This document shows, one piece after another, positions 4,743-60,200 of a stretch of 64,000 nt of DNA. Each line of letters opens with the position of its first letter. The stretch's first letter is position 1. The stretch lies in assembly GCA_905178155.1 (NCBI GenBank), contig CAJINV010000004.1:2932921-2996920 (forward strand), read 5' to 3'. The translations under genes and the position numbers were made by a program. Origin of the DNA: Amoebophrya sp. A120 (taxonomy: Eukaryota; Protista; Dinoflagellata). The notes under the pieces are model-generated. The model searched no databases. It was given only the letters and a program-made list of their open reading frames with translations, and was not told the origin of the DNA.

Positions 4743-7395
4743 TTACGCTGCACTCGTCGGCGTCGTGTAGTCGGCCTGCTCGTGGTCCTCTCCTCTTCCC
4801 GTCAACCCACCACCTAAAAAACCCGCACTTTTACTCCGCTGCTCACTCGCGAGCCGCTCTAGAATCTTCGACGGCGGCAAATTCGCGTCGACCCGGAGTT
4901 CCACACACAGCGTCTTCCAGAAGTTTTTCAGCTCATGTAGCCGAGCGAAGACCGTGTTCATCGCGGGCAACACCCCTTCGAGTTCCTTCACGTCAAACAG
5001 CTGCATGAAGTGCCGCACAATCTTCATGACCAAATCCTGGCTGCTCTGCAAGTCCACGTCGACCTCCGCGAAAAACTTCTTCGTTTGCAGAATTCGGTTT
5101 TCGAACTCCACCAATCCCTGCACTGCGAGCAGGATCTCGTCCCGCGTCTTCTCCGTCTGTATTTTGTCTTTGCGCATCCTCTCCAGCGCGGTCAGGGTTG
5201 CAGAAGGCATGTTGGGGTTGTTCTCGCTGGAAGATAGAGATGATTTCAGATTTTTATCGCCGGTTGTCAGTAAGTTCTTCCTGACCTTCTCTCCCCCGAT
5301 CAAACCGTCGATCGCCTCGTCAACAAGCTGGGCGTTCCGCACCAGCGACGGCCCGCCGAGAACCTTGCCGCCAGTGGACCGTCGGGTGGCCAGGGCGGCG
5401 AGAAGATCTGATAAAAATGCCGTAATATGACACCAAAAACGAAATAAAACTGCTAAATGACGTGAACGTGATTGGAATTTGGCATGCACGCATGCGCGGG
5501 AAACGAAGATGCCCAAATTTGTATTGCATAGCATGCATGATAGAGAAAATTTGTTACTTATGCATCATGATGATGGGCATGCGTTATACCTTCGAAGAAT
5601 TTGAACCAGTGTTCCAGGCTCATGGCATCGAGCTTCCACTTGCGGATTTTCTTTACCAGCATGTCTTGGTCGACGTAGTCGTTTTCCTCGTCCAGACAGT
5701 CCCCGAAATCGCGAAAGCGCGCCCGAAACGCGGCGACGCCGCTGCCCCCCGCGCCGCCGCCCGTCGAGCCGCCGGACCCGAGCCCGGCGCCCGCGTAGAT
5801 GCGGTAGATTTCCTCGGCAAACGCCCGGAGGTTGGGAAGATATCCTGTGCAAAAGTATCGCACTCGTAGTAATCCCAGTCATGCATTACAAATCTCCATC
5901 CCAAGGCAAAACAGCATGACAAATTCCATTTGCCATGCTGGGCCAACTTGTAATGCAATTACTACTAGTACGAGGACTACGATACTTTTGCAATGCATAG
6001 AAGACTTCGCTCCACCATCTTGCACATCATCTCGATCGCCTTCTCGCCCTCCTGCAGGTCGGCCAGCTTCAGCTGCATCAGCACCGCGGTACAGAACCGC
6101 CGCAGTTCGATCGGGTCCAGGTGCTCCAGCTCCGGCAGATTCTTCATTTTGCGCCGCCGGTTCAGCGAATGCAGCTTGCGGTCGGCGTCCATCATGGTTC
6201 GCGGGTCCGCCTTCTTCCACGTCTGTTTCACCTGCCCGGAGGGGTCGCGCGCTCGCTGCAGCTCGGCACCTAGGGGGAGATGCGAGGTAGATGCAGTAGA
6301 GTAGAGCTAGATTCTGCAGAACAGAATATGAACATACAAGAAGAGAAGACCGAAAGCTTTAGCTTGTGATAAGTCAGCTAGTACATGTACAACATGTTGA
6401 CTACAGCAAAACATGACTAGTACGCATGGTCGCGATGTCCCGATGCGAGGGTCGCTCGATCAATTCCTGCTCGAGCTGGTGGATAATCCGGTCCTTGGTC
6501 CGGATCTCCTCCAAAAACGTCGTGCGTTCCTCTTCCCACTGCTTCAGTCCGCGCAAATACTGCTCCCGCTCGTCCTGCAGCTGTCGGCGCAACGTAGCCA
6601 TCGTCGTATCGCGGTCCCGTTGCGGCCAATCGTCGCGGCTGGACGTTGCGGGAACGAAACCAGAGGAACATCCGGATGCCGTTTGGGTCGGAAGTTGTAC
6701 GGGGCCTTCTGTCACGTACACAGGGGCCGGGTTTGTTCGAGGAAGGGCTGATGTGTCGTAGGCGGTATACGCTGCTCCTGCGGTACGACCTTCATGGGCA
6801 TGGGTTTAAACTACACAATTTTTAGCGGCAGCCGCAACATTTATTTGGTCGAGACAGGCAATTCTTGCCACTTTTTTCGTGTCATGGAGACTGCACTGAA
6901 ATCGCTCCACCTTTTTTTGCTCTACTGTACTTGATGAACATACACATGGATGACATAAGTACCTGAAGCACCGCCGCCCCCAGATCCTAGGCCTGTTTGA
7001 AGGTAAGACCCTCCTTGTGCCATAGCTGCACTTCCCGACGACATGGTGTAACCCCTGGTCGGAGCAGCGCCGGCACTCGCAGCAGAAAGCGGCACAGCTG
7101 CCCCCGCCTCCCCACCTCCGGCCGGAAGTGCAGTGCCTGTAGCTCCTCCAGCACCCTGTGGTATTTCTTGCCCTAGAAGTTGCTGGCGCAATTCGAATTC
7201 AGGCGTGATTTGTGTGAACTCCGTGCCCCGGTGGGCGTATTCCTTGGCGTACCGAAGCCGCTGCCGCTCCAGCACCGCGGCGATTTCGGGGTCATCGCGA
7301 AACGAGGACTCATCACTCGACGAACTACTGCTGGATGGCGAAGAGCGGTCGCTTTGAGTCGGCGCGGGTTGTCGTTCTTGCGGTGCAGTAGACAT
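4743..7395 (-). CDS. CEP70-like centrosomal coiled-coil protein (multi-exon)
   Basis: C-terminal IVRHFMQLFDVKELEGVLPAMNTVFARLHEL resembles the CEP70 C-terminus. In-frame joins across GT-AG introns 6778-6962, 6270-6423 and 5408-5589 and introner 5841-5999 (VERS-LPNLRAF). Confidence 0.75.
5841..5999. mobile_element. Introner, family A (159 bp)
   Basis: tatcctgtgcaaaagtatcg...cgatacttttgcaatgcata inverted ends; direct repeat gaaga at 5836-5840 and 6000-6004; removal restores the CEP70-like frame. Confidence 0.93.
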
Positions 7396-12391: not shown

Positions 12392-15300
12392 CTACGAGGC
12401 CCCGGAGACCGGTTTCACCTTCGTCCCCGTCACCATCACTCTGGTCGGATCATTGTCCAAAACCGACAAATTCCCGTTCTAATATGCATTGCAAAAAGCA
12501 TCGTACTAGTACAAATTGCAATGCAAATTGGTCCAGGAGAAAATATCCAACTTGTGATGCTGATTTCCCTTCGGCGATAGATCTGTCATGCATGACCATG
12601 ACCGCGATTAGTACGACTACGATACAACTTTTGCACAGGATATCGAAATCGACTCGGCGATCTGCTTGGTCGCAGTGTGAATCATGGGGTTGTTCCAGTG
12701 GCAGAGAGTAGCGATGGAAGGATTGTTGCTGCAGTTCTTACTATCCAGTTTCGCACACAACCGCTCGTATTCCGCTGCAGTCATGGGCTCGCTTCCATGA
12801 TTCGCTCCTTCATTTGTTGAAGAACCACCCGAGGCCGTAGAGTGTTCTGCGAAGAGGGTCAAGCACCGCAGGAAGCCGCCACCATGCGCATAAGCCAGGT
12901 CCTGGACGACGGTGGTGTAACCTGTGATGGTCATGGTGCGTAAACAGCTTGCTCTAGTATGAGAAACAAATGTGGGATTATTACGCAGTAGTACTCCTGC
13001 ACCACAATTAGGCTGCCATGCAAGTGCAACAACTCGACGGCATAACAAACTTGCGAAGATATTCATATTCGGGTGTCATCCTAATCTTAGTATTCTCTTA
13101 TAGTCTTCTTGATGCACATGCAGCGTTTGCGTTGTAGTAGTTTGTGTATTTTCCTTTCCATTTATCCTTCATCTACTAAAGCACTATACCTTCCTTCTCC
13201 AAAATCCCCTGCAAGGTCGGGCACCGGGGCGGAATGATGGCCAACCGCTTTGCCTTTTCCAACAGGTTCGCGCAGTTGCGCTCGTCGACCAGAATGGAGT
13301 TCAGCGCAAACGCCATCCACTCCTGCTTGGGAATCAGAAACACCTCGTCGAAGATATAACCTGCTCAGCTGTTACAATTATCTCAAACGTTAGAATAGAA
13401 TATGAAAATCTATGATGCAAGAAGTGCATGATCTAGCGAAATCTACTGATAGGGTTGCGCATGACAAGTTCCGGAGCCCTAAACCCCACGACGATCTGGC
13501 GAAATTTGTATTGCAAAAGGTGGAACGCTGTGCGAATCTGTCATGCTCATCATGCAACACAAATCTCAGATTCTATTGTAACGTTTGAGATTGTAACGTT
13601 TGAGGAGGTCATAGAACACCTCGCTCCGCAGTTTCTGCAGCGACGCGTCGGTGAGAACCTGATCGCCCACACACGCTTTCCCGTATGAAAGTGCACGACT
13701 CCCCTTCCCCCTCATTTGTATTGCATGAACAGCAACTCAAGCGTCAGCAAGAATACAGGTTTTGCATGACAAATTTGGGTAGGCGTGTAGTGCTATTTGG
13801 GGCCGCCAGAACTTATCATGCAAACAGTGCCAAGAGCCCAGGCGTAAATTAGGCATTTTGCATGACAAATGAGGCCGAGGCGGAGTTGTGCACTCTCATA
13901 TCCCGTTGAACAGGGAAAGAATCGCCAGGTCTTGGTGGTAGCCGTGGGCCTTGTCCTTGGCCTCCACGATGATCACCTCGTCCGGAAAAGAATCGATTTT
14001 CAGCACGTCCTTCGCCAAGGTGATCACGTCTTGGTACGCGTTCTTGTCCGACCGACTGCTGTCAAACCCGAGTAACACGTTCTTCTTTTTCTCCGAAGAA
14101 GTTGTCACTTTCACCGACACCAGGTCCGCCATCCCCTCGAAGGTCTTCGCCAATTCGAGCGGAAACCAGCCGAGCTGCAACGCTACCGCCCGCATGAACG
14201 GGTTCTCCAGTTGCCGCTCGAGCATGCGCGGGGATTGCACGATGAAAACCTCCTTGTTGTCCAAAACGGGGGATTTCCCGAGGTACAGCCCAAGATTCGC
14301 CAAGTAAACGGCGTCCGCCATGCTGCTGATCAGGGAGTCAAACACAGACTTCACTTTCTTCTCGATAAACGGCTTCTGGATTCTTGCGTCGTCGTCGGAT
14401 ATTAACACTGCGAGGGACGTGCGGTTCTCGATCTTATTTTCAAGAACATCCTCATCTGCGATATTAGAAGTCGAGTAGTTCTTCGTCTTCGTCACGAGGG
14501 AGTCCGTCTTGGCCCGTTTGCGCGGCGGCTCCTCAAGAAGCAGAGCAGAAGTCATCACTTCGTCCGAGCTCGGTGAAGAACTGCTGGACAGAAACGCAGC
14601 GGCATGGTCACGTTTGGTGGAGGACGCGCGGGAGCTGCAGCTGGTCGTCGAGCGCGTTGAGGTGGAGAAGGAAGCCTTCCGGAACGTGTCGGCGTCTGTT
14701 GCGTTTTGGTTAGTGCCGGACGACGAGAGACCGCCCTGTAACTGCTCCTGGTTTTCCTTTTCCTCCTGCTCATCGTAGTTGTGCTTCTCGTTCAGCCGCA
14801 GAATCGCTTCGACCACCTGCTTTTCCAGTTCCGGACGCGCCTTTTTCAGCTTAGAAGTAGTGGACGAAGCCATGCTGGGAGAAGAATTTGAATTCATCTT
14901 TGGCGAAATAGCAGTAGAGCCTCCGGATGAAACACCACTGTTCTTGTTCGAAGACATCCAGTGCGCTCCCAGCGTTTTCACAATCTCGGCCTTTGCACCC
15001 TCCGAAAAGTAGTTGCCCCGAATCCCGGCCAGAATCAGGTCCAGGGGGAAACAGGTCTGCATCGGCTGGATTGCCTTAACGGTGATCGATGAAGCTCCTC
15101 CTTCGCCGCAACTAAAGCCTCCGCTTGATGTTAACGTCGCGCTGTCATTTTCACCATTGGCGTTGTTCTTCATCTTCTTTGGGCTTTTTGCGCTTGATGC
15201 AGTCGTGGCGGTGCCCTTGACCTTGTCCTGCATGGAAGAAGTAGAAGTAGAACTTTTAGTACTATCCAGCGCGAAATGGCGACTGATCGTGCGGTGCAGT

Positions 15301-17270: not shown

Positions 17271-17869
17271 TCAGTTGTACTTGCAGAGGCACCCCGGAAT
17301 CCCGCGATTGCAACCCGCCGGCCCCGTTCCGCACGCGTTAATGTTCAGAGCGGGCATGAGGACCATGGGAAACAACAAAAAGCACAACACCGACCCCGCG
17401 CAGATGAGGAGCAGCATGGAGGCGCTGCTGTTCCCGTGCAGGAGGCCGCAACAGAAATAGCCGCGGTGGTCGTCGTCATCGTAGGTGGTGTAGGCATACC
17501 TATCCACAGGAAATTTTCCGCACACGTAGAAATGCAGTCTCTGCATGAGAAAACTTGACTTCGATCCTAGTTTAGCATGGCAAGTTTTACGCTCCAAATT
17601 GGTGAAATTTGTGATGCATTTCGTACATGTAAGGGAAATTTGTATTGCATAGTACCCATAGTCGTCGTACACCACACGCGGCCCTCCCCCGCTTTTCCAA
17701 TGCCCGTGCTGGCAATCGTGGATCAAGCACATGAGGCACAAGAGCATCGTGACCAGGAAAATCAGAAAAATGGACATCATGCAGCACTGGTGTTGCAGCC
17801 ACCAACCGTAGTAGCCACCCAAGGTCACCACACCGCTACTGGGGTTGGAGACGCGCTTGCCATTTTCAT
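17271..17869 (-). CDS. Small membrane protein with two hydrophobic segments, Cys-rich
   Basis: Two TM-like stretches in ORF 17271..17831, extendable to ATGs at 17863 and 17869; contains introner 17501-17651. Confidence 0.6.
17501..17651. mobile_element. Introner, divergent family A-like (151 bp)
   Basis: tatccacaggaaattttcc...ggaaatttgtattgcata; direct repeat atacc/gtacc; internal tgtgatgc and gcatggca motifs. Confidence 0.8.
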
Positions 17870-19970: not shown

Positions 19971-22900
19971 CTATCGTCGCTTTTTCTTAGCGGGCCTGGA
20001 AGATGCCTCCACGAGCTCCTCATCGTCATCGCTTCGGTCTTGCCGACGACGCCCTCGCTCCCGATCGCGGTCTCGTCGGTTCGTAACGTCCTCTATCTCG
20101 TCGTCGTCGTTGTCTTTATTTTCGTCGGCTGAGCCGCCTCTAGTTCGGCCACGGTCCCGCTCTGATCTGGTGCCGTTATTCCTTCTACTGCTCTTGTCTC
20201 GGCGTTCTCGTTTGGAGGTTGTCGTGTTTCTGTCCTTTTCGTCCTCTCCACCGCTTACTATTTCATCTGGCCTGTCCTGTGTCGACCGCCGGTCTCGCCT
20301 GTCTGCTCGCTCTCGTCTTTCTTCACGAGGGGAAACCTTATCACCTCCGCCCCGACGCTTGTTGTCCTTTTCGTCCCTACTTCGTGGACGAGATCTCCGG
20401 TCTTCAGCAGCGTCACCCCGACCACCCCGTCTTTCCCGGTCCCTGTCACGCCGATCGTCGCGCCGAGATCGCGAAGGGGCACGTGGTCTTTCCCGGTCGT
20501 GGTTCTCTCCACCTGCTCGTGGCGACCTTCTATCGCGGTTCTTGTTCTCTCTTTGTTCCCGATCGCGGTCTTGATTTCTTCGTTCTTTCTCCTTCATGTC
20601 TCGTGGTCGTTCGACAAGAACTTCATCTTCGCCTTGTTCCTCGTCCGTTGAACGTTTATTTTCTCCGGTCTTGTTTTCTGGGGTACTACGGTCGTCCCTA
20701 CGACCCCCTCCCCGTCGCGCCTCCCGGTCCCGCTCCCGCTCCCTCTCCCGCTCCTTTTCCCGCTCGCTTCTACTCACCGCCTCCTGAATTTTCCTCACGC
20801 GCTCCTCGACCTGCTCCTTGAACCGCGTCGGCCACGGCGCAATCACTGCGGGGAGAAACATCTCGGACTCTTTCTGGAGGAGCAGTTCGTAGTTGTGTTT
20901 CCCCAGTCGCCGAAGTAGCTTTTTGGTCAACGTCTTCCAGAAAGATTTTTCCACCTGGGGTATCTCGTTGGAGGTGGTCCCATCCTCGGCGGAGGAGTTG
21001 TCGTTTTGGTTTTTGTCGTTAATGTTCATACTTTCCTGTCGCTGCAGTTGCTCGTCCTGGAGAAAGTTTCCCACGATCATACCGAGTTCCAGCATTTGCT
21101 TCATGGACAGCTGGTTCTGCTCCCGCTCGAGTTCCAACCGCTTCCTCGTAACTTCGTCAACTTGTTGGTCCTTGTCCGCCTTCCGTTCCTTCCTGTCTTC
21201 CTCCTGCAGCAAAGACCAGCTGGATTTCATCTCCGTCAGCATCTGGTCCCAGAACGCCAGCAATTGGTTCAATTCCTTGCGTATTCTGTGCAAAAGTATC
21301 GCACTCGTAGTAATTATCGCAGTCATGCATTACAAATCTCCATCCCAAGGCAAAACAGCATCACAAATTCCAATTATCATTTTGAGGTAATCGTAATTTG
21401 TATTGCAGTTACTACTAGTACGATACTTTTGCAGTTCATATTGCGCAGATCCGCGGACCGCATTTGGAAGTTTATCGTGGAAGACAAAAGCCCTTCCGTG
21501 TAGCAAAGGAGCTGCGGAAGCGGTAGGGACGAAACCCGGTTTTGCACGTCCTGGCTGGCGGCCTCGAAAAATTGCACCACTTCCAGGGGCATGTCGTCCA
21601 GGGAAAGCGCGCCACAAACACTGTTGCAAGCGAGCAGCACCTTGGTCAGGTCCCTGAGAGGAGTGAGGAGGAAGGTTAGAGGTAGTGCTAGATGTTTTTG
21701 ATGGTCGTGACAGATTTTTTTGAGGGAACAAGGCAAAGAATTCACACAAAAAAAGCTATAAGCCTATCATAAAGGCGACGACGTTCTTCTTGACTTGTTT
21801 GTTCTACTTCATCCAGCGGCGCAAGAAGGAATGATAAATAATCAAGCCAAAAAAACCGTAATCTCAAGTACTTTCCCGATGAAAAGTCGGCGACTTTGAC
21901 TTTCCCAAACGCGGTCACGAACGCGCTTGTCAAATGCGGTCGCACCTCCGTGTCCAACAGCGCCTCACTCTCCGGGTCGGTCGCCAACCGCGCGAAGGCC
22001 TTGGCCAGAAGGAACAGGAGCTGACTCACCTCGTTGGTCTTCAGCGTGCTTTTGATGTGCATTGGTGCCGCTTTCGCGATGTCGGTTAACCGTACCCGAC
22101 TTAACCGCACCGACTGGCTGGCGGCCTGCGCCAGGTGAATCAGCGCGGGCGGCGTGGCAAGGAAGGGTGAGACGTCGTTCAGAATATTTGCCGTCGCTTC
22201 CTCGGGCGCCGTTTCGCGATCCAGGTGGGCGGCGACCCCCAGGGCAAGGACTTCGGCAAAATCGTCCTTATGCAGCTGGCCACGTGAAAACTCCACGATG
22301 CAAGCGTCGACTAGGGTGGGGATCTGTCAAGGGTAGTAGTTTCGTGGAGATGTTTATTTTCAATTTTATCATCGATTATGCACAAAATCGAACTCGAAGT
22401 AGTCAAAGAAAAGATTAGCATTAGTTTCGATCGTGCAAAAAATTGAAGTCCAAATTCATTATTCATCGGGTGAAAAGCAAACATCCATCGTATAAAGTAC
22501 CTCAGCCACGCAGAGCAGGATGTCTCGCTTTTTCGGGCTTAGCGTTTCTTTGGGAAGCTTCTGCAGCAGCGCCCGGCCGACCGTCTCGACAAAGAGCGGC
22601 ATCTCCATTTTCCTTGCGGTTTTCACCACCCCTAGTAGCTTTTCCGTCGAGCTGCCACTAATCGCGTCCGCGCACAACACGCTCAACTGCGTGTCCACGT
22701 CCGCGGCCTTCAATGGCAGAGTGAGCAGCACTTCCAGCTCCTCAATGCTCGCAATCCGCCAGTACTTGAGCAAGGTGGTCGACACCGTGTCACTACTGCC
22801 GTTCGAAAACGCTTGATACGCCCCGTCTAGCTTTTTCGCAAACAGCTCCGCGAGCTTCTCCCGCACTTTCAGTTTCGCCTGACTCAGGTTCTTATCCTCG

Positions 22901-25106
22901 ATGCTGTTGATCAGTAAATCGAGGGTGACAAACCGGTGCAACTCCAAACTCGGATCGTGGAAGCAGCTGTCAACGATCATCGGCAGAGCGGTGAGTAATT
23001 TCTTCTGCGCCGTCAGTTTGTCCACCGCGTACTGAATGTTGTCGCTGCTGGAGGTAGATGTTGCAGAAGTAGATACTGGTCCTCCTGCTTCGTTAGAAGT
23101 TGTGCCGCTAGTACTAGCACTACTCCCCGTATCCTTCCACAGCACCATCAAGCACCGCTCGACAGTTTCCAAGTGCAGCTTTTCCAGCCCGCTTGGATCC
23201 GCCTCGGCGATCGGGCCCGCTAGGTCGGTGCCCTTCTTCGCTTTTCGCAGCGCGTGGGCGAGCTGCTCGTCCCGGGTACGGAGCTTCACCTTCCCGTTGC
23301 TGTAGTACCACTGTTGCCAGTGCGCGTCGAAGTAGGTCTCGAAATCCTCCACGTCCCACACGGACGTGCCCAGGATGTTCCGGAAGTACATCGCAACCGA
23401 CTCGTGGGTCCGCAACCGGTCGAGCTCCACGTAGCCGTGTTCGTCCTTGGAGAGGTCCTTCATGCTATCGCGAGGAAAAATCCCCCCGCACCATATTGAA
23501 ACGGAAATTTGTGATGCTGATTTGTGACCACAAATCAGCTTTGTCTTGCGTACAAGGCAAACGGCACCCATGTGCCGCATTGTGCAGCCAGTCTGTCATG
23601 CGTTTTCGCCTATGTCAGACTTGTTTCTCATGCGCAGCTGCAAGCCGGATGCGTGTCCAAAATGGCCTTAGAATATGCCGACAAGCTCTTGCTGCAATAC
23701 AAAGCTCATTTGTGTACACAAATCCAACAACACAAATTGTCTTTTGCGTATGGGGTGGGGGCTTTTTTCACTTTGATACATGCTGGGAACCAGGACCTCC
23801 TCCATAGTCACATACTTGAACATCGTGTCGTATTTTACCTGATAGTGGACCAACATATAACTTTGATGAAGATCATGTGGCAATGCTAATGGCAGCTCCT
23901 ACATGATGTTGAAATTGGTTTTGTAACTACAACTACAGGCTCAAGATCTACAAGTAGAGAAGCACTACTTATTTCAGCGCAATTTATACAAAAATCGAAA
24001 TTTATACCAGCATGAAATCGACGCTGGTTTTCTCCGCGTCTTCCATCTGTTTGATGACCCGCAGATGGTTGGGCTCTTTGTACGCTAAATACGCCCCCGG
24101 GTAGTAGGCGGCCTCAAAGCGGAAGGCGTTGGTCATGGTCGGGGAGGGTACCGCGATGAAGTTGATCAGGTTCCCGAGTTGCGAGCTCGTCAGCTGCAGT
24201 TCGGATTCGAGAACCTCATCCGTCAATTCGCTAAAGGTGAGGTTCATTCCGCCGGAAAATCCCACCGCCGCGGTCGCGGCCGGGCGGATGCGGCACATGT
24301 TGTTCACCTCGGGCAGCCAGTACAGATTGAATTTTGTTTTTTCGAAAAAGGGGAGAAATTCCGCCTTCACATCCTCCCGGGACTGAACGAACAGGTTGCT
24401 GCCCTGGTAACGGATGAATTTCTGCGAATTCCCCAGCGGACAGAGCATGAACTCCTTCGGGATGGCCATCCGCGGCGCGATGCCGGAGGTGGGGAGGGAG
24501 ACGCCATTGCGCTTACGCTCCAACGCAGCGATCTGCTCGTCGTAACTGTAGTTTTTTTCGTTGTGGGGAGGGAATGAGGAAATAGGATTTTTTTGGACAT
24601 TCTTTTCGACGCGTTGAAACGTTCTTGATATCCGCGCTCATCTTGCATAAATCACCATGTGCCAACAGTATCACCAGAACACGGTCACAGAGAGATGTAG
24701 TCTCGATCAGGATTCAGGTCACGTTTATGATCAAAACAGATTTATGCAACAAAAATACAGAACAAATGTATCAGTTGTATAAGTAGTACGCCTGCTTCTT
24801 GGCCGGGTTGCTGAGTGTTTCGTACGCGTTGTTGATATCTCGGATCATTTCATCCGCCTTTTCCCTCTCCGTGGGGTGTTTGTCCGGGTGCCACTTGATG
24901 ACCAATTTTCGGTAGCTCTTCTTGATGACCTCCGGCGTAGTGGACTTGTCCACGCCGAGGACCGCGTAAAAGTCCAGCATTTCGCTGTTTTCCGTTTTCG
25001 GCTTGTTTTTTTGCTCGTCTTGCTGGGATGAAGCCCCCGCCGCGTCTGGGTCTTGGTCATTTGACCCGGTCGTGGCAGGCTTCTGTTGATCTGCTGTTGT
25101 GCTCAT
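19971..25106 (-). CDS. DnaJ-domain protein with AbfB/CBM42-like region, helical region and R/D/E/S-rich tail
   Basis: J-domain (DFYAVLGV...WHPDKH...INNAYETLS) and FRFEAAYYPGAYL. In-frame joins across GT-AG introns 24546-24789, 23839-24007, 22324-22500 and 21654-21871 and introners 23466-23778 and 21282-21440. Confidence 0.72.
21282..21440. mobile_element. Introner, family A (159 bp)
   Basis: tattctgtgcaaaagtatcg...cgatacttttgcagttcata; direct repeat ttgcg; close in sequence to 5841-5999; the join gives DLR-KELNQ. Confidence 0.93.
23466..23778. mobile_element. Introner, family F (313 bp)
   Basis: tatcgcgaggaaaaatcccc...ggggcttttttcactttgata with ~90-bp imperfect inverted arms; direct repeat catgc; the join gives VPSM-KDLS. 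Confidence 0.88.
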
Positions 25107-36038: not shown

Positions 36039-36120
36039 CTGATCGTGACGAGTTTTTGTGTCGCTGCTACGATGCCGATGGTGTCTGATCGTGACGAGTT
36101 TTTGTGTCGCTGCTACGATG
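36039..36120. repeat. 36-bp perfect direct repeat, period 46 bp
   Basis: ctgatcgtgacgagtttttgtgtcgctgctacgatg at 36039-36074 and 36085-36120. Confidence 0.9.
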
Positions 36121-38780: not shown

Positions 38781-41700
38781 TTAGAAACGGTTCATCTCTA
38801 CACTGCCAACTGAACAAATGGTGCCGGGGTCTTTCTTGTTCGTACTACTCATCTGCTCGAGTTGCGGTCGTTCTCCTTGTTCTTCATCTAGCAAGAACCC
38901 GTCTATGTCGACCGTTTCTTGGGAATTGATCCTGGTAAAAATATTCAGCTGGCTTCTACTTCGGGCTGCTCCTGCACTGTGTACTAGCTCCTCCAACGAA
39001 GCAGATCGTGCAGGCACCACCCGGCCCGAAACGTGCGACATCACCGTGGCCGACTCAGCAAGATCCTCAAGAACAGGATCATGCTCGTCCACTATTGTGC
39101 TGCCTTGCATCTGGATTTGCTGTTGATCTACTAATCCCGTCGGGTAGAAGTAGTTTCCGTTCCTCTGCAGTTCTCCTTCTTCCACCTCCGCCGAGCTTTT
39201 TTTCTTCCCTTCCAGTTTTTCCAGCCGCTGGCGCAGTTCGTCTACCTCGGCCTGCAAGTCATCGACGGGGTCCCCGAAAAACTCCGTCACAAACTCCCCG
39301 ACGCAGGACGCCCGACGGATGCCCATGAACAGCAGAATGCAGGCGTAGACCACCATCACCTCCACATAGGGAAACGTCGCCAAGACGTTCGGCAAGGCGG
39401 TCTCCCAGGTCGGGCACTTCACCTTCTGCACCAGCCCAATGCCGTGGCAGTCTGGCATGCGGGTCCTGCGGGGTTCTTGTTGTGGGTTGGAAGAACTAGT
39501 ACCTGAAGCAGAAGCTGGAGATAAAGTCGAAAATGAATCATCTCCATTTGAAGATGACTGTCGCCCCTGCTCCCCATGGTCTAGCCGCCTGCTTGTCGTA
39601 CTACTAGAAGAAGTACTAGTTGAGGGGTAGACATAGGTTGTTGTAGCAGGTGGCACCCCGAGCAGCTTTTGCATTTCATAGGACTTGAATTCGTTCAGCA
39701 CGTGGGTTGGTAGCCGCTCGGAGAAACAATCCTTCCCTTCGTTATACCAGGAATCGATCGCCCCATAAGACTCGCACGTCGGGCTCGGAACGGCGTTGAT
39801 TATATCATCAACTCCCGGCGTCAACACATTGTTCTCGGAAAGAACAACAAAATCTTCTTGTGCCGTATTTTCTGTTTGATATCGGTCGGTATGCAGCTCG
39901 TGTTCGAACGGTTCCTCAGAAGGTGCGAAGGTGGTGCTGGTGGTCGCGGAGACTTTATTGTCTTGTTTGCTACCTTCGCTACTCGCCTCCGCCTCGTCGG
40001 TGATCCCCGAATAATTGGAGGCTCCGCCCAGCACTCCCGCCCTGCTTTCCCGTGCCTGTCGCGCCTCTGCATCCGTGGTGCAGTGAATTTGACAGAACAG
40101 CGTGCGATATCGAGCGCAAATACATATCTGGAGCAGGAAAAATGGAAAATTTGCTTTGCAATTCGCGGACCACGCACATCATGGTCATCTCGTCTGGAAT
40201 GCACAAAAAATTTTGCGAGACCTTCTTGTTCATGATGCCTCTCCAGCAAGAGCAGCCTGCCTTTAAAAGCCTAGAAGAAATAAACGGACAGCAACTTTTG
40301 GGATTCGTGCAATACAGATCATGTGCTTTTTGTGAAGATCGGAACTACTTCGGATGACAAGCCGCATCCTTCCAGACCCAGATCGATTTTTGCAGCGCAT
40401 ATGCGGAAATGCGTTTCGTCGTCGCCTTCGAACCAGAAAGGTTCCAGCATCCGCACCGAGCAAATGCTCCAGCCTTCGTGCGCCTGGCGGAAGTTGCCGT
40501 AATCTCCCGCGTTCATGCCACAGGCGCGGCCGACGTGGCTGTGCGGCGGGAGGTCACCGTGATCTACTTGTGGATTATTTTCATTTTCCGGAGGACCGTC
40601 TGTGTCTGTCGTGCTTGTATTGTCGATAGAAGTACTTGTTCTCTCAGACTGCTCTGTCTCGCCGCTACTAGTACCACCTGCAAGATCATTATCATTTTGC
40701 AAGGCCGCTGCATCAAGAACCAGTCGTGCGTCGATCGCGGAAGTGGTCGTGCTCGTGCTGGATGAGCTGGCTTGTTTCCCTACGGCGGAGGAGGGTAATT
40801 CAGCATGATGTAGCTGAGGATGGACACCAACATGATCATGCGCTGTTGCACTTTCTACACTTTTGCTCGTGTGGTCCTCCGCGAGAATCCGCCTCCTGGT
40901 TCTGTGCCGAGTAAGAACCTGGCTTCTCGTTGCTTGCGCATCTACTGCTTCGGCAGTCGTGGTACCAGGAACCGCCGAGGAACCCGGAGCCGGCGTCGTG
41001 CTACTACCGATGGAGAGCGTGCTGCTGCTCCCGTGGTATCCGTAGATGGAAGAAGCGGTGGTGGTTCCCAAGAAAGCCAGTCCCGCCTCCATCTGGCAGG
41101 TTTGCATGTTCTGCATTGCAAAGCTATCGCACTAGCATAAATTGCATTACAAATTTTGGCAAGAAGACAAGCGGAATTTGTAATGGTGTTTTACCTTAGA
41201 AGGGAGATTGCAACTCGTACGAGCTGCACGATATTTTTGCACAGGATACATGTAGTGGCGGAACAAAACCAATACGCTCGAGCCGAGCGCGCCAACCAAC
41301 GTGATCGCGAACGGCGCTAATTGCCACCACTTCAGAATTTTCGCCGCTTTCTGCTGCTTCAGTTGGTGGTGCATCCGGTAGGGCAGAAACGTCCCGAGCA
41401 CCGAGAGAAACAGCCGGCTCAAGCATCCGATCGGCTTTTTCTGTTTTTTTCGTGTGGTTGATTTTGATGCATTTCTAGAGGTCGTCATATCGTCGTCGTG
41501 TTTTGCGTCCGAGGCTGCAGACGGGCCTTCCTCTATGATCATACTGGAAGTGCTGGACCGTGAAAGGCCACGGCGCGGCCGCACAGAAAGCTGGCGACCT
41601 TTATCGGGGGATAATGATAAATTCTGGCAGTTTCTCCTATTTTTACTGCTGCCTGAGCCTCGCTCGTCAACATCTGCAGGCGGTCTGCTGCTGGGTGGAA

Positions 41701-47500: not shown

Positions 47501-49017
47501 GGTGGAGCGGTCGGTGCTGCAGCTGGTGGGGGCTTCGATGCATTCGAAGTCGAGGTATTTTTTTTGTTGCTTTGTCGTGTGTTGTTACTGTTCTTCAGAT
47601 CTTTTTGGTCCATTTCGTCTTCTTCATCGTCGCTGCGCATATCGGCCCAGCGCTTGCCCCCTGTGGACGGCTTATTGTTGTCTTTGGTCGTCGTGGTCTT
47701 CTGTGCGGATCCAGCAGTAGGAGCTGCAGTACTACTACCTCCGTTCCAGGTGCTGCTTTTCGCGCCGCCGCCGCCCGGACTGGGTTTACTCACCATTTTC
47801 GCGACTTTGTCGATGTCCGATTCGTCGACACCGGAGGTGATCCGCATCTTGGACGCCGACGCCGACTCGCTTTCCGGCTGTGTGGCCAGCCGCTTCGGCT
47901 GTTTTGGAGGAACAGCTGCTGTACCAGTAGTTCCACCGGCCGCAGTATTTGCTTTACTATTTGCTACAACCGTGGTGGAGCTGCTGCTACTGCTTGAGCT
48001 CGTCGCCGAGGCGACGCCCGATGCAGGTTGTTGTTGACCAGTCCCACCTATCAAATGCAAAAATGTCTGCGTCTGGAAGAGTGCAAGATTTGTCATGCAT
48101 ATTTCTCATGACCCATGATGTCTGTAATGCATGACCTAGCATCGCAGACTTTTAGAGGGCTTCCTGATGCACGTTCCGCATGAGAAATGCCCTGTCCGCG
48201 TCGTGCAAATTGTCCCGCTCTTGGTGGTCATGCAATACAGATTTTTTTAGAGTCCAAAAACAGCATCACAAGTTCCAACCTTCCAGACCCAGACATTTTT
48301 ACATTTCATACCACCTATAACCTTCTTGTTCCCCGCAGCTTGTCCGAAGCTGCTCCGCGAGCTGCTCTTGCTGCCCGCCAGGCGATCGCTCTCCAGCTGC
48401 TCGTCATTCTGAAACCGCTCTTCCACGCCCCGAAAATTCAACGCTGCGTTGTTTAGCGACCGCTCCAGCTCCAGGTCGGCCGCGTCCAGATCGGTGCGCT
48501 TCTTGTAGGAGTAGCTGTCCGCATTGTCGCGGATCTGCAGCTGGGAAAGCCCGGGCGTGGGCTTGTTCAGGTTGATCTGGGCGGGTGCTGTTCCTGCAAC
48601 AGCTCCTCCAGCTGCAATTCTAGATGTTGACGTAATTCCGGACTTATTTGTTGCCCCTCCTGGTGCTCCGGGTCCCTTTTTGTTGTTCTCACCAGGATCG
48701 CGACGGACGCTGTTTTGATTTTTTTTATATCCGTTCGAGCTTTTTCTCCTTTTTGGATGGAGATTCAATCAATAATCCTTTGTTCTTTTCATTCATTGTT
48801 CTGACACTTTATCCCTTCTTCACGTTTTATTTCTCATTCTCACGCAGCGTGGCCGTGGCTTACTGCGCTTTACAACTTGTCATGCAGTTTGTAGTGCAAA
48901 AGCAGCATCGGAAGAAATAAAGTATTCGTTAACATGTCGAAAATAGAAGTACAAGAATCCATCCTCGTCGCTGTCTTCGTCACTGGTGTAGTCGGCCCAG
49001 TTCTTTTTCGCCGTCAT
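44536..49017 (-). CDS. Low-complexity protein with PAM2 motif and C-terminal SLBP-like RNA-binding domain
   Basis: Phase-compatible GT-AG introns 48710-48952, 47105-47234, 46764-46960, 46194-46484, 45069-45341 and 44652-44852, plus introner 48049-48310. PAM2 is STLNASAPAFIP; the SLBP-like stretch is KNLPEYKLYLADVPKERREEGHHPSTP..SNRQF..MRRWL. Confidence 0.68.
48049..48310. mobile_element. Introner, family B (262 bp)
   Basis: tatcaaatgcaaaaatgtctgcgtctgg...ccagacccagacatttttacatttcata; direct repeat ccacc; the join gives VIGG-TGQ. Confidence 0.93.
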
Positions 49018-50713
49018 TTTACCAAAATGCCTTCTGTTCAAAAACTAAACCGGTGTGGGTGCTGTGCCTTCAACTCCTCCACAGTCGTGCTGCGTTCTTG
49101 TAATGTACCAGAGAGATGATGTTTGCAGGAGGTGGGTGCGCCCGGACCGGACCCGGGGTTGCGAAGGCCACAAATTATATTTCTACTTTTTCGCGATGTT
49201 ATTTAATTGTATTTTATGGCACTTGATCGAGCGAAGCAGAGAAGTAACTCCTACTAGTGGTTTTTCTTTGAATTGTTTTTCAGCACCATGATGATTTCCG
49301 AGCGTCGGTCGCGAGGGCAGATGATAGGAGAAGCGCCGTCAGTTTTCAAAGCTTTGCTTTTATTAACCAACTTTCTTCCTACCTCTCGTTTGTTATTGTT
49401 TCGCTCGCACGTGCTGGCTCTTCTCATCGAAATGACCTAGTACGGCTTACTTTCCGCTCTGAGTACTTAGACGAGTCGTGACCTACGTGTCGTGCTTCTT
49501 TTGCAGCGCTCCTACTTTTTTACTCACGATATAATATCTTTCCCAACTCCACATCCACCACTCTTTTTTCAACGATTTTTCACTCCGGTCTAATCGCCCC
49601 TAATCTGAAAGAAAGATAACGTCTCAAGCAAGAAGATAGTTGCTCCACAAAAAATTCAGAACAAATTTGTAAATGGAAACTCACTGCACTTTTTCACTAT
49701 TACCTTCAACATCAGAAAATAAGTAAGTGGATATTTTTCACTACTCCCCGTGACACGTGGAAATCTGTAAGTAGCTTTCCGCACTTAGCAAGAGATGATG
49801 AAAACCAATCTCGATTGCTAGGACGGACCAAGCTGGAAAATGATATATGTGTCGAGAGAAGTACTTTGGTATGTGTGCGCAGTAAAAATATTATAGTGAG
49901 TGCTACTACTTAAAGTTAAAAATGCATATTCTTGTTGAGGAGCGATACTTATCAACGCGCGCGTCGCAGACGCGGGAGAAAAATGATAGAAGTAGAGATG
50001 TATGCTCCTTCTAGTGAAATAGGATGGGTAGCCACGGAAAATGAGGGACCTGGGGTGGTAGTTCAAGATTCGCAATGATGTTGATGACTCGAGTAATCCG
50101 AATGAAAATTTTGAGTGCAGTTTCGAAATCAGCCACATCTACGAAGCCGGCAGCGGCAATTCTTCGGTAAAATAAAACGATTTTTGTCGTGCTGAATGTA
50201 GTAACCAACACCGAAAAAGTAAAAAGAAAACCGACCGCAGAGTTTTTTTTGTTGTTACGGGCACGATGTTGAGGAAGCGCGTACTTCTGATATTCTTCCT
50301 GTTGTACGTGGTGCATGGTACGTGTGCGGTCTTGAAACCTGCTCTACGAAAAAATAAAACCATCTACGATAAAAGCTTTGTGTGTTGGTTGCGTCGCACG
50401 ATGTTGCCATAATTCTACTTGCTTTATTTCGCACGAAAACGAAGGACAGAACATGAAAAAAGTCAAAACCGAATCTCTTTGTGTTGCAGAAAAAGTACAA
50501 TAAATCGACCGAGCCAATCTCCACACTGAGCTGAATAATATAAATGGAAAAACAAGGGATTGAATTTCAACCGACATAATCGGAAAAAAAGGGAGAGTCC
50601 GTTGATGCTTGCGCGCCATGTGGAAAAGCCATCGATATACGAAAAGATTTTCATTTCCGATGGTACGATGGATATTTCTTCGATTAGGTGATTCTTGTTC
50701 TTCTCTTATGCAG

Positions 50714-54268: not shown

Positions 54269-56299
54269 TCAGTACAGAAACCCTTTTTCCGCCGCTGCTT
54301 GCGCGAGAAAATCCCGAACCAGTTGCATGTTTTTGTCGTTCAAAATCGAGACACAGCAGGTCGCGGTGGATCCCATCGGCGCGTGGTCCTTCAATTTGAA
54401 CTTTTCCCCCTCGACGCCCAAGTACTGGTCCGCGGCGTCTTGGTTCTCTAACGCGCACGCGCGCGACTGTCGCATCCGCTCGATCTCCCGCTCGAGTTCC
54501 TCGAGCACCATTCGTTCCGGCCGCGTCATCTTGTCCATCTTGTTCACGACGAGCAGCAGTTTCGCAGTGCTGAAGACCTGGGTGATCAGCTCCTTGTCCG
54601 TGAACAGGTCGTACAAAAATTCCGCGGCGTTCTTCAACTCCACCTTGTCCGTCATGAGAGTGCACAACTCCCGCTCCCCCTCATTTGTCACGCATACCCG
54701 ACTGCACCACATCGAAAACCTTTGCACCGTCGCTGCAAGCAGCTACGGCCGCAGGAGATCTAGGGTCAGAACCGCGAAAAGTATCGCGAGTATATCTTCA
54801 TTCCCGGGCACTAATATTATGATTATCTTTTCCTTACTTCTCGCTTACCGCAAATCGATTTGCTGCCCTCTGGCACTGTTTGCATGACAAATTACGGAAG
54901 ACCAAACAGTACTACTTTCGGCAGGTGAGCTTGTCATGCAAAGTCTCCAGGAGTGCTGGCGTTTGTATTGCAGCTTGTTCATGCCATACAAATGAGGGGG
55001 CCGGGGAGTAGTTGTGCACTCTCATATCCGTCCCGTCGATGACAAACAGGACGCAGTGCAGAGGCTGACTCCGATTCAACAGCTCCTGGCGGACGGCCGT
55101 GCGCATCCGCGGGTGGCCCGGACACTCGGTCAGCGAGATCGGAAAAGTTGGCTTCGTGTAGGAGGTTGTGATTTCATCTTTGTCCTCTGCGCGTGCTGTT
55201 TGTGTTTGTTCTGGTTTGCGACTGTTCGTTGGGCTCGTTTTATCTATTCCCGCGGTCGTGGTGGTCTCACTTGTGGCTCTATCCTGTGCAAAAGTATCGC
55301 ATTCGTATAAATGCAAGTCTTGCATTACAAATATTTTTCTTAAGGTAAATTAGCATGGCAAATTTCATTTCTCATGCTGAGAAAATTTGCATTGCATTCA
55401 TACGAGTACGATACTTTTGCAGTTCATAGGCTCCTCCTTGCCGGTGTTCGAGCTCGAAGCTCGCACTGGTGATTTTCAGACTGCTACCCACTGCAAATAT
55501 GTCTGGGTCTGGAAGAGTGCAAACTTGTCATGCATATTTTCCATGCCCCATGAGGTCTGCAATGAAGGACCTAGCATGACAGGTTCTGCGAAGTCTCTAT
55601 CAGGTCTATCCTGCATGACAAACTGCCTCTATCTAAACTTGTTCAAAAGTGGACACCTTTTGGTAACCATGCAACACAAATTTTTGCACGATCCAGACTT
55701 AGCATGACAAGTTCGCGTCCTTCCAGACCCGGACATATTTGCAATGCATAACTGCTCACCAGCTTCATTTGCTTTTCGTCGTCCCGGAGGGCAAAGAGCA
55801 GCGCCGTTTTTCCCGCATTGTTCTGCCCCAGAATCGTGACTTGTAAGCCTTTGCTACTTTTCCCGCCCCGGATCTTCGAGCCTGACCCCACGAGCCCGAC
55901 CGCGTACGCACCAGCCACGCTCGCGACGGAGGTGGTCAGCAGAAGAAAGAAAAGTGTTGGTGTAATAAACGGGGTCGGCTCAGGCTCTTCCTGCTCAAGA
56001 TCCGGAGATGAACCTTCTTGCACTTTGGTCGTCGTGTGCTCATCATTTTTTATCGCAGCAGCTTTCTTACTACCTCCAGTGTTCGTGGCTGTCTTTTTTG
56101 ATTTGTTAATCCCATCTTCATTTGTTGATGTCGAAGCTGCTTTTTTCGCCGCTCCTTGTTTCTTTTCTTTCGCCGCGACAAAGAGGGTGGGAAGCTGCGC
56201 TGTAATAAGAGTCTGCGTCGACGTCGAGCAGCCAAACAGAAGCACCCCGGCTGCGGCCTTCGAGAGTCGCGAGGACTTCATCTGCAGTTGGAAGAACAT
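54269..56299 (-). CDS. SRPRB: Signal recognition particle receptor beta subunit (Arf-like GTPase)
   Basis: TM segment, P-loop GQNNAGKT, ECPGHPRMR, FVIDGTD, AEFLYDL, NKMD and LEREIERMR. Reconstituted by removing three introners. Confidence 0.85.
54653..55026. mobile_element. Introner, family C, reverse orientation, with internal insertion (374 bp)
   Basis: catgagagtgcacaactccc...agttgtgcactctcata; direct repeat tccgt; the join gives DGTD-KVEL. Confidence 0.92.
55280..55428. mobile_element. Introner, family A (149 bp)
   Basis: tatcctgtgcaaaagtatcg...cgatacttttgcagttcata; direct repeat ggctc. Confidence 0.92.
55485..55750. mobile_element. Introner, family B (266 bp)
   Basis: tacccactgcaaatatgtctgggtctgg...ccagacccggacatatttgcaatgcata; direct repeat actgc; the join gives LVSS-LKIT. 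Confidence 0.92.
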
Positions 56300-57268
56300 C
56301 TTCTTTTAGGGCTCGCGACGATTTAGATTTTCCGAAAGGTGAAGAAAAACTTAGGTCGCTTTGATGTTGTGCTAGTAGCTGCGTTCGAAAACGTGGAGCG
56401 TACTATTCGAAGCCGATTTTGTTGTATAGGGTTAGGGGCGAGGGCGCAATTGCTGCAAAAGTTTTAAAAGATGTTAGTGGGTTGTGGAGTGACATAGCTA
56501 CGTGCTTGTGATACATCTCAATGTTTTCTACTTGTTACTACACCTCGCTGTGCATGTGTTACTAACAAGTTGTGCTTGAAGAAAAAGTGTTTCTGCCGGT
56601 GGTGAGATATACCAGGCCAAACTGCGGAGAACCATCAATACAAACACAGATCCTCAAAGTTTCTCGTCGTTGTGAAAAATTTACTTTTCGGATCCTACTC
56701 TTGGGACTCATGGAGTTGTCTAAAAACCATGACATAATTAAGTAAATGGATGTGCAGCTCGAACTCGATCTTTTCTCAACTTTGATCGACGATGTTCATG
56801 TTGATGCGGTCGGTCGCTGACTTATAGAGTAGACTTGCACTGCTGCTTGTGCTTCAAGTAGATTCATCGCCAACCACGAACAGAACGCGAGATATTTTGC
56901 AGTAGAACTTCGCCGTCGAGAAACAAGAGCTCTTCTGCTTAGATAGTGCATCACTCAGCCTCAGGCCTGTTCATCGTCGGTCTTCGCCTTAAACACAATT
57001 CGGAATGGGGGAGTGTCCACGACTGATGTCTTCTCTTTGCAACATTCTTTGTCGCGATCGTGGCCGAGAAGATATATCAGAATGACAATACTGTGCCGGG
57101 GGTCACTGGCTGCTTTCTGAAGGGGAAAACATCGAAAATGTAAAAAAAAAAAGAGAGATAGAGTAGGCGGGCAGTTGAGATGAGTCCGCAAGTAAGTACT
57201 TACGCATGAAGATGTCGTGAACGCCAAGCAGCTAGCAGAAGGATCACGCCTGTACTGGACTCCGCCCC

Positions 57269-60200
57269 TCAAAGTGCGAGATATTGCGACGCCGCCACCG
57301 GTGGCCCGACATCATCAACATCCTCCGTAGGAAGTAAATCTTGACCTTCACCGGTCGAAGCAAAACCTTCTTCCCTGGCCCGCTCCTCCCCCTCGTCTAC
57401 CACCTCCGCAAAAGACGCGGACTTTTCTTGCGCCGGCGCGTCGCCGTCTCCCCGCGGACGAGTCACCACTTGATGTTCCCCGAACGCGCGGAGCGAGTGC
57501 GCGTGCTGCACAGAGTCGCAGGTTTCTGCACTGTCCAGCAGAAAGCGAATTTCCCGTTTAAACGCGAGCATGCGCGAGGAGTCACTTCCCGCGAAGGAGA
57601 ACAGCGGAATCTGCGACTTTTTACTCACATACAGCACGTGCGCCGCCGTGTTGGTTATTTCTTGAGTTTTTGTTTCTTCAACAGCTTGTTCATTCTCGGC
57701 GTCTGATTTGAAGTCAGCTGCTTGTGCTTCCCCCTCCAAAAGTTCGGTTTCAAATTGCCAAAAACGGAGTTTCGTCCATGTTGCGCTGTTGGTGCTGCTA
57801 GAAGTGGTTCTTGCGCCAAGTTGAACTTCTTTCTTGATGTTCACGGTCACCCTCTCGTAGCCGGGCTTAACCACGCCGGTTTCTGGGTGTCCGAAGATCT
57901 GGTTTTGTAGTTCTTCCGCGTTTTCTATCAGGTGGCTCTCGATCTGGTACTTCAAATAGAACATGCCCAGCGGCGTTACGTCCCCGTAAATCTCGGCCCG
58001 CGGAAAGGTTCTAGAAGTTTTGGAAGTAGAAAGAACACCAGCAGCAGTGCTAGCCCCGCCGATTTCGATAACGGGATGACCTTCAAGTTTCTCACACACC
58101 CACGCACTCTTTGCCCCTCCGGACGATGTATCCTCGTCTTCGTTCTCAACTCGTGTACGACCTAAATTATCGTGTGCAGGATTTCCAGCACCAGCTCCAA
58201 CGTAGCGCAACACCCACATCGCCGCCTTTCCTGTCGGAAACACACTCTTCGTTGCGTGCGCGACGCGCGCGCCCTGGGTATCGTAATCGACAGCGCCATC
58301 GGGAGACACAAGGTCGCACTTCTCGGCGATGGTGTTTGTGTTTTCATCTGACATAGCACCGTGGTAGTGTTCGTGCAGCTCCCGCAGCATTTCCTTGTCT
58401 TCTTCAACCATTTGCAGCACTTCTTTGTTCTCCGGGTCTTTCGCTGCCATTTTTGCCAGTTTCTGCTTCAAGAATTCCAAATAACAACCATCCACCAGAT
58501 CCTCCTCCGGCGGCTGCCGCCACAAAGCGAGTTCTCGCTGCATGTTTTCCAGAAACGGAAGATTGGCGAGATTTTCCTTTTCGCCATCGGAGCCGGAGGC
58601 TTTTTTAGAAGAAGTTTGCTGCTGCATATTTGTAAACCACGTGAAGTGCCGCGTGTGCTTTTCAAGGAAGGAGCTTGAGCTACTACTAGCACTACTAGAA
58701 GCTGATGCACTGCTTTTTTCCACAAACTTCGGCTCGATTCCCAGTGCCTTTAACGCTTGGTCGCAGGGAGCCACCCAGAGATGCTTTTTGCAGTAGACCG
58801 ACAGGTGTAGATCCTTGGGCCCGTCTGTGAATTTTTTACAGTACTCCGGTTCGTAGTCATCGAACACTGCGTCCCACTTGCAGCAGGTGATCCGTTCGTT
58901 CTGAATGCCAAAGTCCGGGTACTGGAAGCCTTGGGTAAGCTGTTCCACCGTGTTCTGTACCGCCTTGTAGCTCTTCATCAGGGAAGATTCTTGCGCGGCG
59001 TAGTATAAGCCCCCAGCGCAGTAGCCGACCGGCAAGGGTTCTGCGTCCTCTTCATCCTTGGTCGGGTCGACCCACCCCCTCCCGACGCACTGTGCTAGTT
59101 CCGCCTTAATCAAGTCCTGCCACTTGGGGCAGCCGACGTTGTCGCAGTTCCCAAAATTTTTCGCGTCCACACTGTCGCCGCCCGGGTTCAAAGCGGTAAT
59201 GTACTCGTCCCCTAGCGCGTATGGAAGTGTCAGAATCGAAATTGACAAAATCGAAAAACTTGTGATGCATAAAATCAATACCAGTTGGAGCCTCAGTTTG
59301 CAAGCGGCGCATGACAAATTTCGGGAGCACCCAAATCCAGTCTGTCATGCTGTTTGGGCAAAGAATACTGCTCCTGTCGTGCTACTCTGGCATCGTATTG
59401 CATACCCCTAAACAGGCTTACAATCGGTCTCATTTCCCTGCTCCCCAATACAGGCCTCCAGTGCCCTACATTTTATGCATCAAAAATTTTTCGATTTTGT
59501 CGATTTCGATCCGGACACATCCATAGCGCGTACCAGGCGTGCGCCAGCTCGTGGCTCACCACCTCCTTCGCATCGGCGGAAATGGGCACGACGGCGAAGG
59601 TATCAACTGTAAAAATGTCTGGGTCTGGAAGATTCTGACACTTGTCATGCACGTTTTGCATGAGCGATGACGTCTGTGATGCATACCCCAGCAATACAGA
59701 TTTTCTGAGGGATTCGTGATGCCTATTCCGCATGACAAATTCAAATACCTCCTCAGCTTAGCAAAATTTGCATTCCGTTTGCTTCTCATGCAATACAGAT
59801 TTTTTTGGAATCTAAATACAGCATCACAAGTTGCATTCTTCCAGACCCAGACATTTTTACATTTGATAGAAGGCTCGGTCGGGCGCGGCCCGGCCGCCCT
59901 TGATGCTTTCGTCGTTGTGAAGCACCAGAATCGTCCATTGCTTCCAACCGTGGTTCGAGGGTCTGTGGTCGTGTGTAGTTGCGGTAGTATATCATTTTCA
60001 TTTTGATGATCGGATCTTTTATCATGATATTGTCATATTGAGAGCACTGATGCACATGCATTGAACAACAAGTCATAGTTTGGGTGCGCCGCAATGTCAA
60101 TTCAATACGAGGTTTTGACTTTCAAGCTACTTATCTTCATCTTTGAGTCTAGATCGAAAAGAGTCTGAACATAAAAATTACTCGCACGACGTCTTGACGT

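Follow-up and report, generated by a model that had tools for sequence, protein, structure and literature searches.

Seventeen short elements with inverted ends interrupt protein-coding genes in a stretch of 64,000 nucleotides (nt) from the dinoflagellate Amoebophrya sp. A120 (assembly GCA_905178155.1, contig CAJINV010000004.1, positions 2,932,921 to 2,996,920 of the forward strand; the whole stretch is called 'the window' below). In assembled transcript contigs these elements are missing together with exactly five further nt, the length of the direct repeat that flanks them. In a larger sample from a close relative the element borders allow GT-AG or GC-AG splicing no more often than chance, and the same sample reveals a target motif situated outside the repeat. 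The elements are almost certainly the published introners of Amoebophrya A120, i.e. those of Farhat 2021, and the phenomenon, 5-bp repeats and TAT ends included, has been known for this genome since that year.

The elements are 139-374 nt long, are spread over positions 5841-59868 and are referred to here by their first position; they were collected by repeat scans, BLAST, a list of inverted repeats and direct reading. An unbiased search for inverted arms bordered by direct repeats of 5 bp gave 29 candidates, of which 12 were elements, and a stricter scan gave 12; copies with one mismatch in the repeat were recovered by way of BLAST, the inverted-repeat list and reading. For a strict class (TA..TA termini, 100-400 nt, exact 5-bp repeat, arm pairing of at least 13/20) we observed 11 members against a mean of 0.075 and a maximum of 1 in 40 dinucleotide shuffles. 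An earlier note on this DNA, made from the sequence alone, had counted 16 elements; the kind of element that it described stands far above shuffled sequence, while the number is 17, the uncounted copy being probably 40108. TAT is present at both ends in 14 elements and at one end or more in all 17 (TA..TA termini in 15), and the three copies said to vary at one end are indeed found: 41110 (TCT), 54653 (CAT) and 55485 (TAC). The 5-bp flanking repeat, described as common to all copies, is exact at 13 of them and carries one mismatch at the other four (12483, 13355, 17501 and 40108).

By BLAST the elements form three families and four singletons, seven groups in place of the 'at least six' of the earlier note. 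Family A has five members: 5841..5999 (159 nt, exact repeat GAAGA, no canonical splice reading), 12483..12642 (160 nt), 21282..21440 (159 nt, exact repeat TTGCG), 41110..41248 (139 nt, exact repeat CATGT) and 55280..55428 (149 nt). Family B consists of 13684..13900 (217 nt, exact repeat TCCCG), 30521..30743 (223 nt, exact repeat AAACT) and 54653..55026 (374 nt). Family C includes 28849..29101 (253 nt, exact repeat TCACG), the decayed copy 40108..40401 (294 nt), 48049..48310 (262 nt, exact repeat CCACC), 55485..55750 (266 nt) and 59601..59868 (268 nt), while 13355..13613 (259 nt), 17501..17651 (151 nt), 23466..23778 (313 nt, exact repeat CATGC) and 59220..59525 (306 nt) stand alone. Close to its right end the 13355 element has a 17-nt tandem duplication (13571-13605) that makes one arm longer, and the element is apparently removed nonetheless. 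The elements are highly repeated in the genome: in a DNA run the summed depth was 640-41,500 over element bins versus about 45 elsewhere, and at element ends there were 40-55 contigs whose flanks differed. No Rfam family was detected in the 64-kb window.

The host reading frames of the elements all lie on the minus strand. Deletion of an element with 5 nt leaves the frame open in 16 of 16 tested copies (the frame is open at 5841 as well), yields frames that reach about 1,990 codons and restores the motifs HELAHAWYALGDEY and FVIDGTDK. The statement that deletion restores the frame each time was therefore borne out, but not as something specific to this length, since deletions of the element with 2 or 8 nt also pass in 16 of 16; the register of five is fixed because the transcript joints drop the element and 5 nt. 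Retention of an element would place an in-frame stop in 15 of 16 hosts. Folding energies of 15 of the 17 elements reach z values of -3.4 or lower, with the ends joined. By sliding the borders within the repeat a GT-AG reading can be obtained for two elements (17501 and 48049) and an AT-AC reading for one (41110); the description of the elements as non-GT-AG introns thus holds for the 14 with no canonical reading and less strictly for these three. The single element that reads through if retained is the one at 17501-17651, a candidate for handover to ordinary splicing.

Transcript evidence covers 11 of the 17 elements and comes from four runs, putatively of RNA, that belong to two samples of one study. 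The contigs are transcript-like: they skip GT-AG introns, show zero depth over two intergenic bins and include a poly-T end. Joints that drop exactly the element and 5 nt were seen at seven elements: 17496>17653 at 17501; 48043>48311 at 48049, 54647>55027 at 54653, 55274>55429 at 55280 and 55479>55751 at 55485, these four in all four runs; and 59212>59524 at 59220 and 59595>59869 at 59601, in two of the four. Removal of four more elements is indicated by length arithmetic. The distance between two pieces of one contig, 504 nt, equals that predicted if 12483, 13355 and 13684 are all removed along with one 268-nt GT-AG intron, a contig piece beginning at 13901; at 40108 a piece begins at 40402, the first base past the element, with 82 nt left, and the bin depth of 1.98 equals 347 x 3.8 / 667. 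Where this was tested no retention was observed at the junctions, which the earlier note had proposed to map, nor did the junctions fall on nearby GT/GC-AG sites: among all equivalent cuts a GT/GC-AG option is absent in nine of the 11 transcript-supported removals. At 54653, 55280, 55485 and 59220 there is no canonical reading at all, and the apparent GT..AG of 59601 sits on the strand opposite to the host gene. Several element-skipping contigs, e.g. those with the 48049 joint, also come without the canonical GT-AG introns. Orientation does not seem to matter: 12483 and 55280 (family A), as well as 13684 and 54653 (family B), lie opposite to each other, and both members of each pair appear to be removed.

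The window also holds 11 GT-AG introns (nine established by transcript joints or length, two putative), all with a GTA start and a CAG end; these ends are tighter than the usual consensus, which deserves mention as U1 was undetected in Amoebophrya A120. One putative GT-AG intron, 5408-5589, contains an 81-nt match to a related element (E 4e-20) and is possibly a canonical intron with a decayed element within it, or one that an element has turned into. In the region 42263-50051 contigs run about 2 kb beyond the last coding exon, with an intron at 44650-44850 skipped near the end, making a long 3' untranslated region.

To have a larger sample we searched 12 of the 64 parts of a metagenome collection with a pattern of family C and obtained at least 144 loci, 143 of them from assembly JACKZZ01 (about 0.66 Mb including overlaps), a sample that favours family C. 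The source of this assembly is a close relative with another genome (92% identity between one of its proteins and the A120 ortholog); these loci contain none of the window exons, and no orthologous DNA was found among them. One locus, L064, had no TAT end and was left out of the counts. We detected 345 TAT..ATA elements without using the repeat: 254 of them have an exact 5-bp repeat, 47 match at four of five positions and 44 at three or fewer (many with visibly mispaired ends), and an exact 6-8-bp repeat was seen at none of the 345. The duplication is strictly 5 bp, and a target-site duplication of fixed length is as in non-autonomous terminal-inverted-repeat DNA transposons (MITEs). Of the 301 elements with at least four matching positions, flanks were available for 293 and an orientation for 202. 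Fourteen of these 202 allow GT/GC-AG in some register, with about 15.4 expected, and no register was enriched. We had considered GT at repeat positions 2-3, present at five of the 17 window elements, as a splice signal and rejected it (10 observed versus 10.7 expected in the 202 related copies). The related elements lie in both orientations to genes, and A occupies positions 11-13 of their ends in 89-95%. Searches of viral contigs with three element patterns gave 0, 1 and 0 matches, the single match being without a TAT end.

The assignment to Amoebophrya introners, already suggested by the earlier note, could be confirmed through the host genes. The SRP receptor beta gene (54269..56305, minus strand) carries the elements 54653, 55280 and 55485 and encodes 408 amino acids (aa) after their removal; an exon of it matches a 408-aa protein of Amoebophrya sp. 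A120 at 100%, and the translation obtained from the transcript joints is identical to that protein. The 54653 element splits FVIDGT/DK, and the SRPRB profile aligns over 29-83 and then 88-172 on the two exons around it. At the protein level no gap appears at the 55485 and 54653 junctions in alignments with the A25 ortholog and two further ones, while the 55280 junction falls in a variable loop. A second window gene matches, likewise at 100%, a 1,036-aa A120 protein containing HELAHAWYALGDEY, and the 59220 element splits HELAHAWYA/LGDEY. The elements 28849 and 30521 share one gene, whose 1,990-codon frame includes a Dpy19 domain.

The text and legends of PMC7789003 describe A120 introners that are the same in kind and in the same organism: TAT starts, inverted arms, direct repeats of 3-5 nt (5 bp in the legend of Fig. 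S19), non-canonical ends with RNA-seq support, many families and 29,850 copies, the average non-canonical intron being 240 nt. The border position was left unknown there, the commonest arrangement reported being four nucleotides upstream; the A120 spliceosome was found nearly complete, with U1 not detected. The earlier note was right that the removal mechanism and the mobilising enzyme are both stated as open. The target motif outside the repeat, the shared internal 9-mer, the strict 5-bp length and the limits on register do not appear in those parts of its text and legends that the analysis covered, figures aside. Nor did we find the distal motif, the internal motif or the use of mismatches described below in the Amoebophrya and introner literature that we searched, where figures, supplements and subscription papers might contain them.

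Repeats with a mismatch reveal which copy reaches the mRNA. Let k be the number of letters of the upstream repeat that are removed; the contigs then limit k to 2 or less for 12483, to 1 or more for 17501 and to 4 or less for 40108. A cut at a fixed place would accordingly take away one or two upstream letters. At 12483 the letter of the downstream copy would yield a TAG stop, and the contig piece ending at 12477 implies that the letter of the upstream copy is kept; the arrangement that PMC7789003 reports as commonest in A120 does not fit this element. One-mismatch repeats make up 68 of 401 elements in the relative and four of 17 in the window. From the 401 elements, 387 had flanks and 266 could be framed with the repeat masked; in these 266 copies 33 repeat mismatches are synonymous and 30 are not, and 40 of the 63 lie at codon position 3. 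A smaller hand-counted set, with 25 of 32 at that position, overstated the effect and was set aside. In the window three of the four mismatches are synonymous (Val at 13355, Tyr at 17501, Phe at 40108). A fixed cut frees one copy of each letter, which puts a ceiling of 2 on the ratio of synonymous to nonsynonymous mismatch rates (pS/pN); our values are 2.6-3.6 for the whole set and 4.6-6.3 for its cleanest subset. With an estimated transition bias the synonymous excess has p values of 0.08, 0.03 and 0.005 in three subsets, a weak hint that both repeat copies may reach the mRNA, i.e. that the cut may slide. Gene conversion from empty alleles would be an alternative reading of the excess, and 12483, where the other letter makes a stop, opposes a sliding cut.

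In the related elements the duplication itself shows no base preference. Outside it, of 746 half-sites from 373 elements, 52% have T at position -13 and 46% have G at -11, against backgrounds of 23% and 27%. In the gene sense T at -13 is equally frequent upstream and downstream (126 and 129 of 257), and this T-N-G is therefore to be seen as a signal in DNA. The signal persists when the codon phases are taken one by one (11 of 12 tests) and at sites with no other element nearby. It is one-sided, being present on the left at 120 sites, on the right at 104 and on both sides at 11, versus about 33 if the sides were independent. The window had not been used for motif discovery, and there T-N-G occurs at 10 of 17 sites versus a null of 0.119 (p 5e-6). 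The codon-phase shares expected from a matrix of the motif are 0.22/0.31/0.46, versus 0.23/0.27/0.49 observed; the codon-phase bias of the related copies (134/71/61 of 266) can thus be attributed to the target motif, which predicts it, and is absent in the 16 framed window copies (5/8/3). Pairing of exon flanks in RNA as the cause of the -13/+17 symmetry was rejected for want of covariation, and no link was found between the side of the motif and the orientation of the element (54 versus 43 in family C). Retroviral integrases reportedly give a palindromic-looking consensus that arises from a one-sided motif, and the one-sidedness of T-N-G resembles this; the retroviral motif lies at or adjoining the duplication, whereas T-N-G sits 11-13 bp outside it.

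The elements share an internal motif of nine nucleotides, defined by eye, with 44 matches in the 3,952 nt of window elements versus 6 in the other 60,048 nt. In the relative it is present in 137 of 141 elements outside family C, with 366 matches in 33 kb versus 5 in 31 kb of exon. It is common to unrelated families, and its commonest spacing is 31 nt. One may speculate that T-N-G resembles the start of this 9-mer over about six positions. Because the ends, the internal motif and the target motif are common to all families, it is likely that one integrase-like DDE transposase, acting in trans, inserted them all.

Two longer sequences were noticed as well. At locus L022 of the relative, positions 505-1608, there is an element of 1,104 nt that has TAT..ATA ends, is flanked by an exact 5-bp repeat and contains internal motifs and, in the middle, short GC-rich repeats; its longest open reading frame (ORF) has no Pfam match. 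In the window the region 60933..64000 (plus strand) opens with an unpaired left end resembling family C, which starts with TAT, has the family C core in register and continues with internal-motif repeats to about 61130; it is followed by a GC-rich tandem array of 93-97-nt units, more than 20 of them, running off the window. The one ORF scanned in this region gave no Pfam match. We consider 60933..64000 a candidate long relative of the elements. A different block of short repeats lies just upstream, at about 60620-60930.

The explanation that we put forward, with our confidence evenly divided for and against it, combines insertion by a DDE transposase with removal by a spliceosome that works without U1 and measures from paired ends. 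The enzyme would make a cut staggered by 5 bp, giving the 5-bp duplication, and the internal 9-mers would be its binding sites, three helical turns apart. In the pre-mRNA the arms of an element might then pair, and the original message might be regained through two cuts, provided that their distances from the stem base sum to five; a fixed cut would fall 1 or 2 nt upstream and, respectively, 4 or 3 nt downstream of the stem. The U1-less spliceosome, with chemistry as assumed from the literature, would likely measure these distances from the paired ends, with no reading of GT-AG. A precedent for an adapted spliceosome is described for tunicates in PMC11282704.

Several observations weigh against this explanation. 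No autonomous partner with matching ends was seen in about 0.6 Mb of the relative. No transposase was found in 134 related ORFs of at least 250 aa, in one element ORF or in the scanned window ORFs; neither was one found in A120 according to PMC7789003, whose text argues against general mobilisation by a transposase. On the side of removal, two elements that fold weakly, 12483 (z -1.4) and 40108 (z +1.2), are both apparently removed, and the earlier note's system reading structure and repeats remains at the level of an inference. Sense-strand arms show no excess of G-U over A-C (150 versus 146 of 3,855), and in the elements nothing marks a branch point on one strand. The pS/pN values exceed the ceiling for a fixed cut, the limits on k come from one contig per locus, and the transcript evidence is made up of assembled contigs and may depend on annotation.

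It is possible, though we rather doubt it, that a protein endonuclease and a ligase, not the spliceosome, cut at the base of the stem, join the exons and free a linear or circular element. No dinucleotide signal exists in any register, elements of both orientations are removed, and 15 of 17 fold strongly with their ends joined, all as this view would have it; removal of this type is suspected for the non-conventional introns of euglenids, which have a like anatomy and leave as full-length circles by a route not known (PMC11282704). The apparent removal of weakly folding copies and the nearly complete A120 spliceosome speak against it, and no such enzyme came up, though no search was aimed at one. 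A jump guided by the repeats, in which RNA polymerase or a later copying step skips from repeat to repeat across the folded element and no excised RNA arises, would account for the lack of a dinucleotide or G-U signal and for the synonymous excess (33 versus 30 in the 266 framed copies, three of four in the window). We think it unlikely nonetheless: the downstream letter at 12483 would be a stop and the contig carries the upstream one, the excess falls short of significance for the full set once transition bias is included (p 0.08) and could come from gene conversion, and element sequence is present in the transcript runs.

The short direct repeats and TA termini recall the internal eliminated sequences of ciliates, and the elements could in principle be excised from DNA in the life stage that expresses the genes. 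We judge this very unlikely. In the one DNA run covered, a single 7.6-kb contig with background depth runs across the 12483 element, and no joint lacking an element plus 5 nt was among the matches listed; the elements also stay in place for long enough to let their repeats diverge. A hairpin flanked by short repeats is said to be a classic trigger of template switching, and the contigs derive from cDNA, so that the joints could be artefacts of reverse transcriptase with the real transcripts keeping the elements; yet in 15 of 16 cases a retained element would cut translation short, as all three would in SRP receptor beta, whose exons stay conserved with respect to orthologs, and weakly folding copies are skipped too. 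This makes an artefact highly improbable. An ordinary spliceosome might use GT/GC-AG sites within the repeats or close to them. GT-AG borders are possible for 17501 and 48049, and 17501 would start with GTA like the 11 window introns; however, both would end in TAG while all 11 introns end in CAG, nine of 11 supported removals offer no such option, and 14 of 202 related copies is the chance level. We give this reading next to no credence: it is refuted as a general rule, and it may hold for single copies like 17501.

There is also a bolder version of the transposase reading, which we hold to be doubtful: an undescribed integrase-like transposase (TA..TA ends, 5-bp stagger, 31-bp sites, one-sided contact), the long relative at 60933 and a sliding join guided by the repeats, all taken together. 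Known transposons provide partial likenesses. In the tables of PMC12130899, most of the A120 introner rows covered (41 of 58) are classed as terminal inverted repeat (TIR) DNA, superfamily unknown. A120 family 38, with '5-bp TSD, TA/TA Termini' (TSD, target-site duplication) and integrase-like homology, is labelled Ginger there though it has no Ginger ends; by this description the window elements are like it in the 5-bp duplication and TA ends. A search for IS3EU in 12 of the 14 supplement files of that paper gave no match. IS3EU and GingerRoot elements, as portrayed in PMC10045372 and PMC6839031, are like the window elements in having TA..TA termini, inverted repeats and no base preference in the duplication, and an integrase-related transposase is expected for them. 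Their duplication is usually 6 bp (6-8) versus strictly 5 here; because of this difference, which counts against our explanation as well, we did not file the elements in IS3EU/GingerRoot.

The non-conventional introns of euglenids, according to PMC12501133 and PMC11282704, are another counterpart: they are transposon-like, with paired ends, repeat-like junctions and no GT-AG. In Euglena their signature fixes the cut by its distance from a paired motif. There the exon has to begin with a purine and a CAG/CTG pair is needed, while the junctions of the window elements favour no base and the length removed in addition is always 5.

Two further observations in the window concern other sequences. 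The stretch 26300-28100 is GC-rich (65%), gave no Pfam match in two long ORFs and no Rfam match, and is possibly another repeat element; in the intergenic interval 36040-36120 a stretch of roughly 35 nt occurs twice, about 45 nt apart.

The target motif, the fixed 5-bp duplication and the internal 9-mer together would be a fingerprint of the missing transposase, and they argue for one enzyme, contrary to the conclusion of 2021. If the transposase reading is true, the contact with the target lies one helical turn from the cut. If the sliding join is true, mRNA is processed here without any splice-site sequence; the mismatched repeats make the position of the cut, a fixed ruler versus a sliding join, testable in existing data. 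Machinery that cleanly removes any such insertion would explain how the genome tolerates tens of thousands of insertions in its exons.

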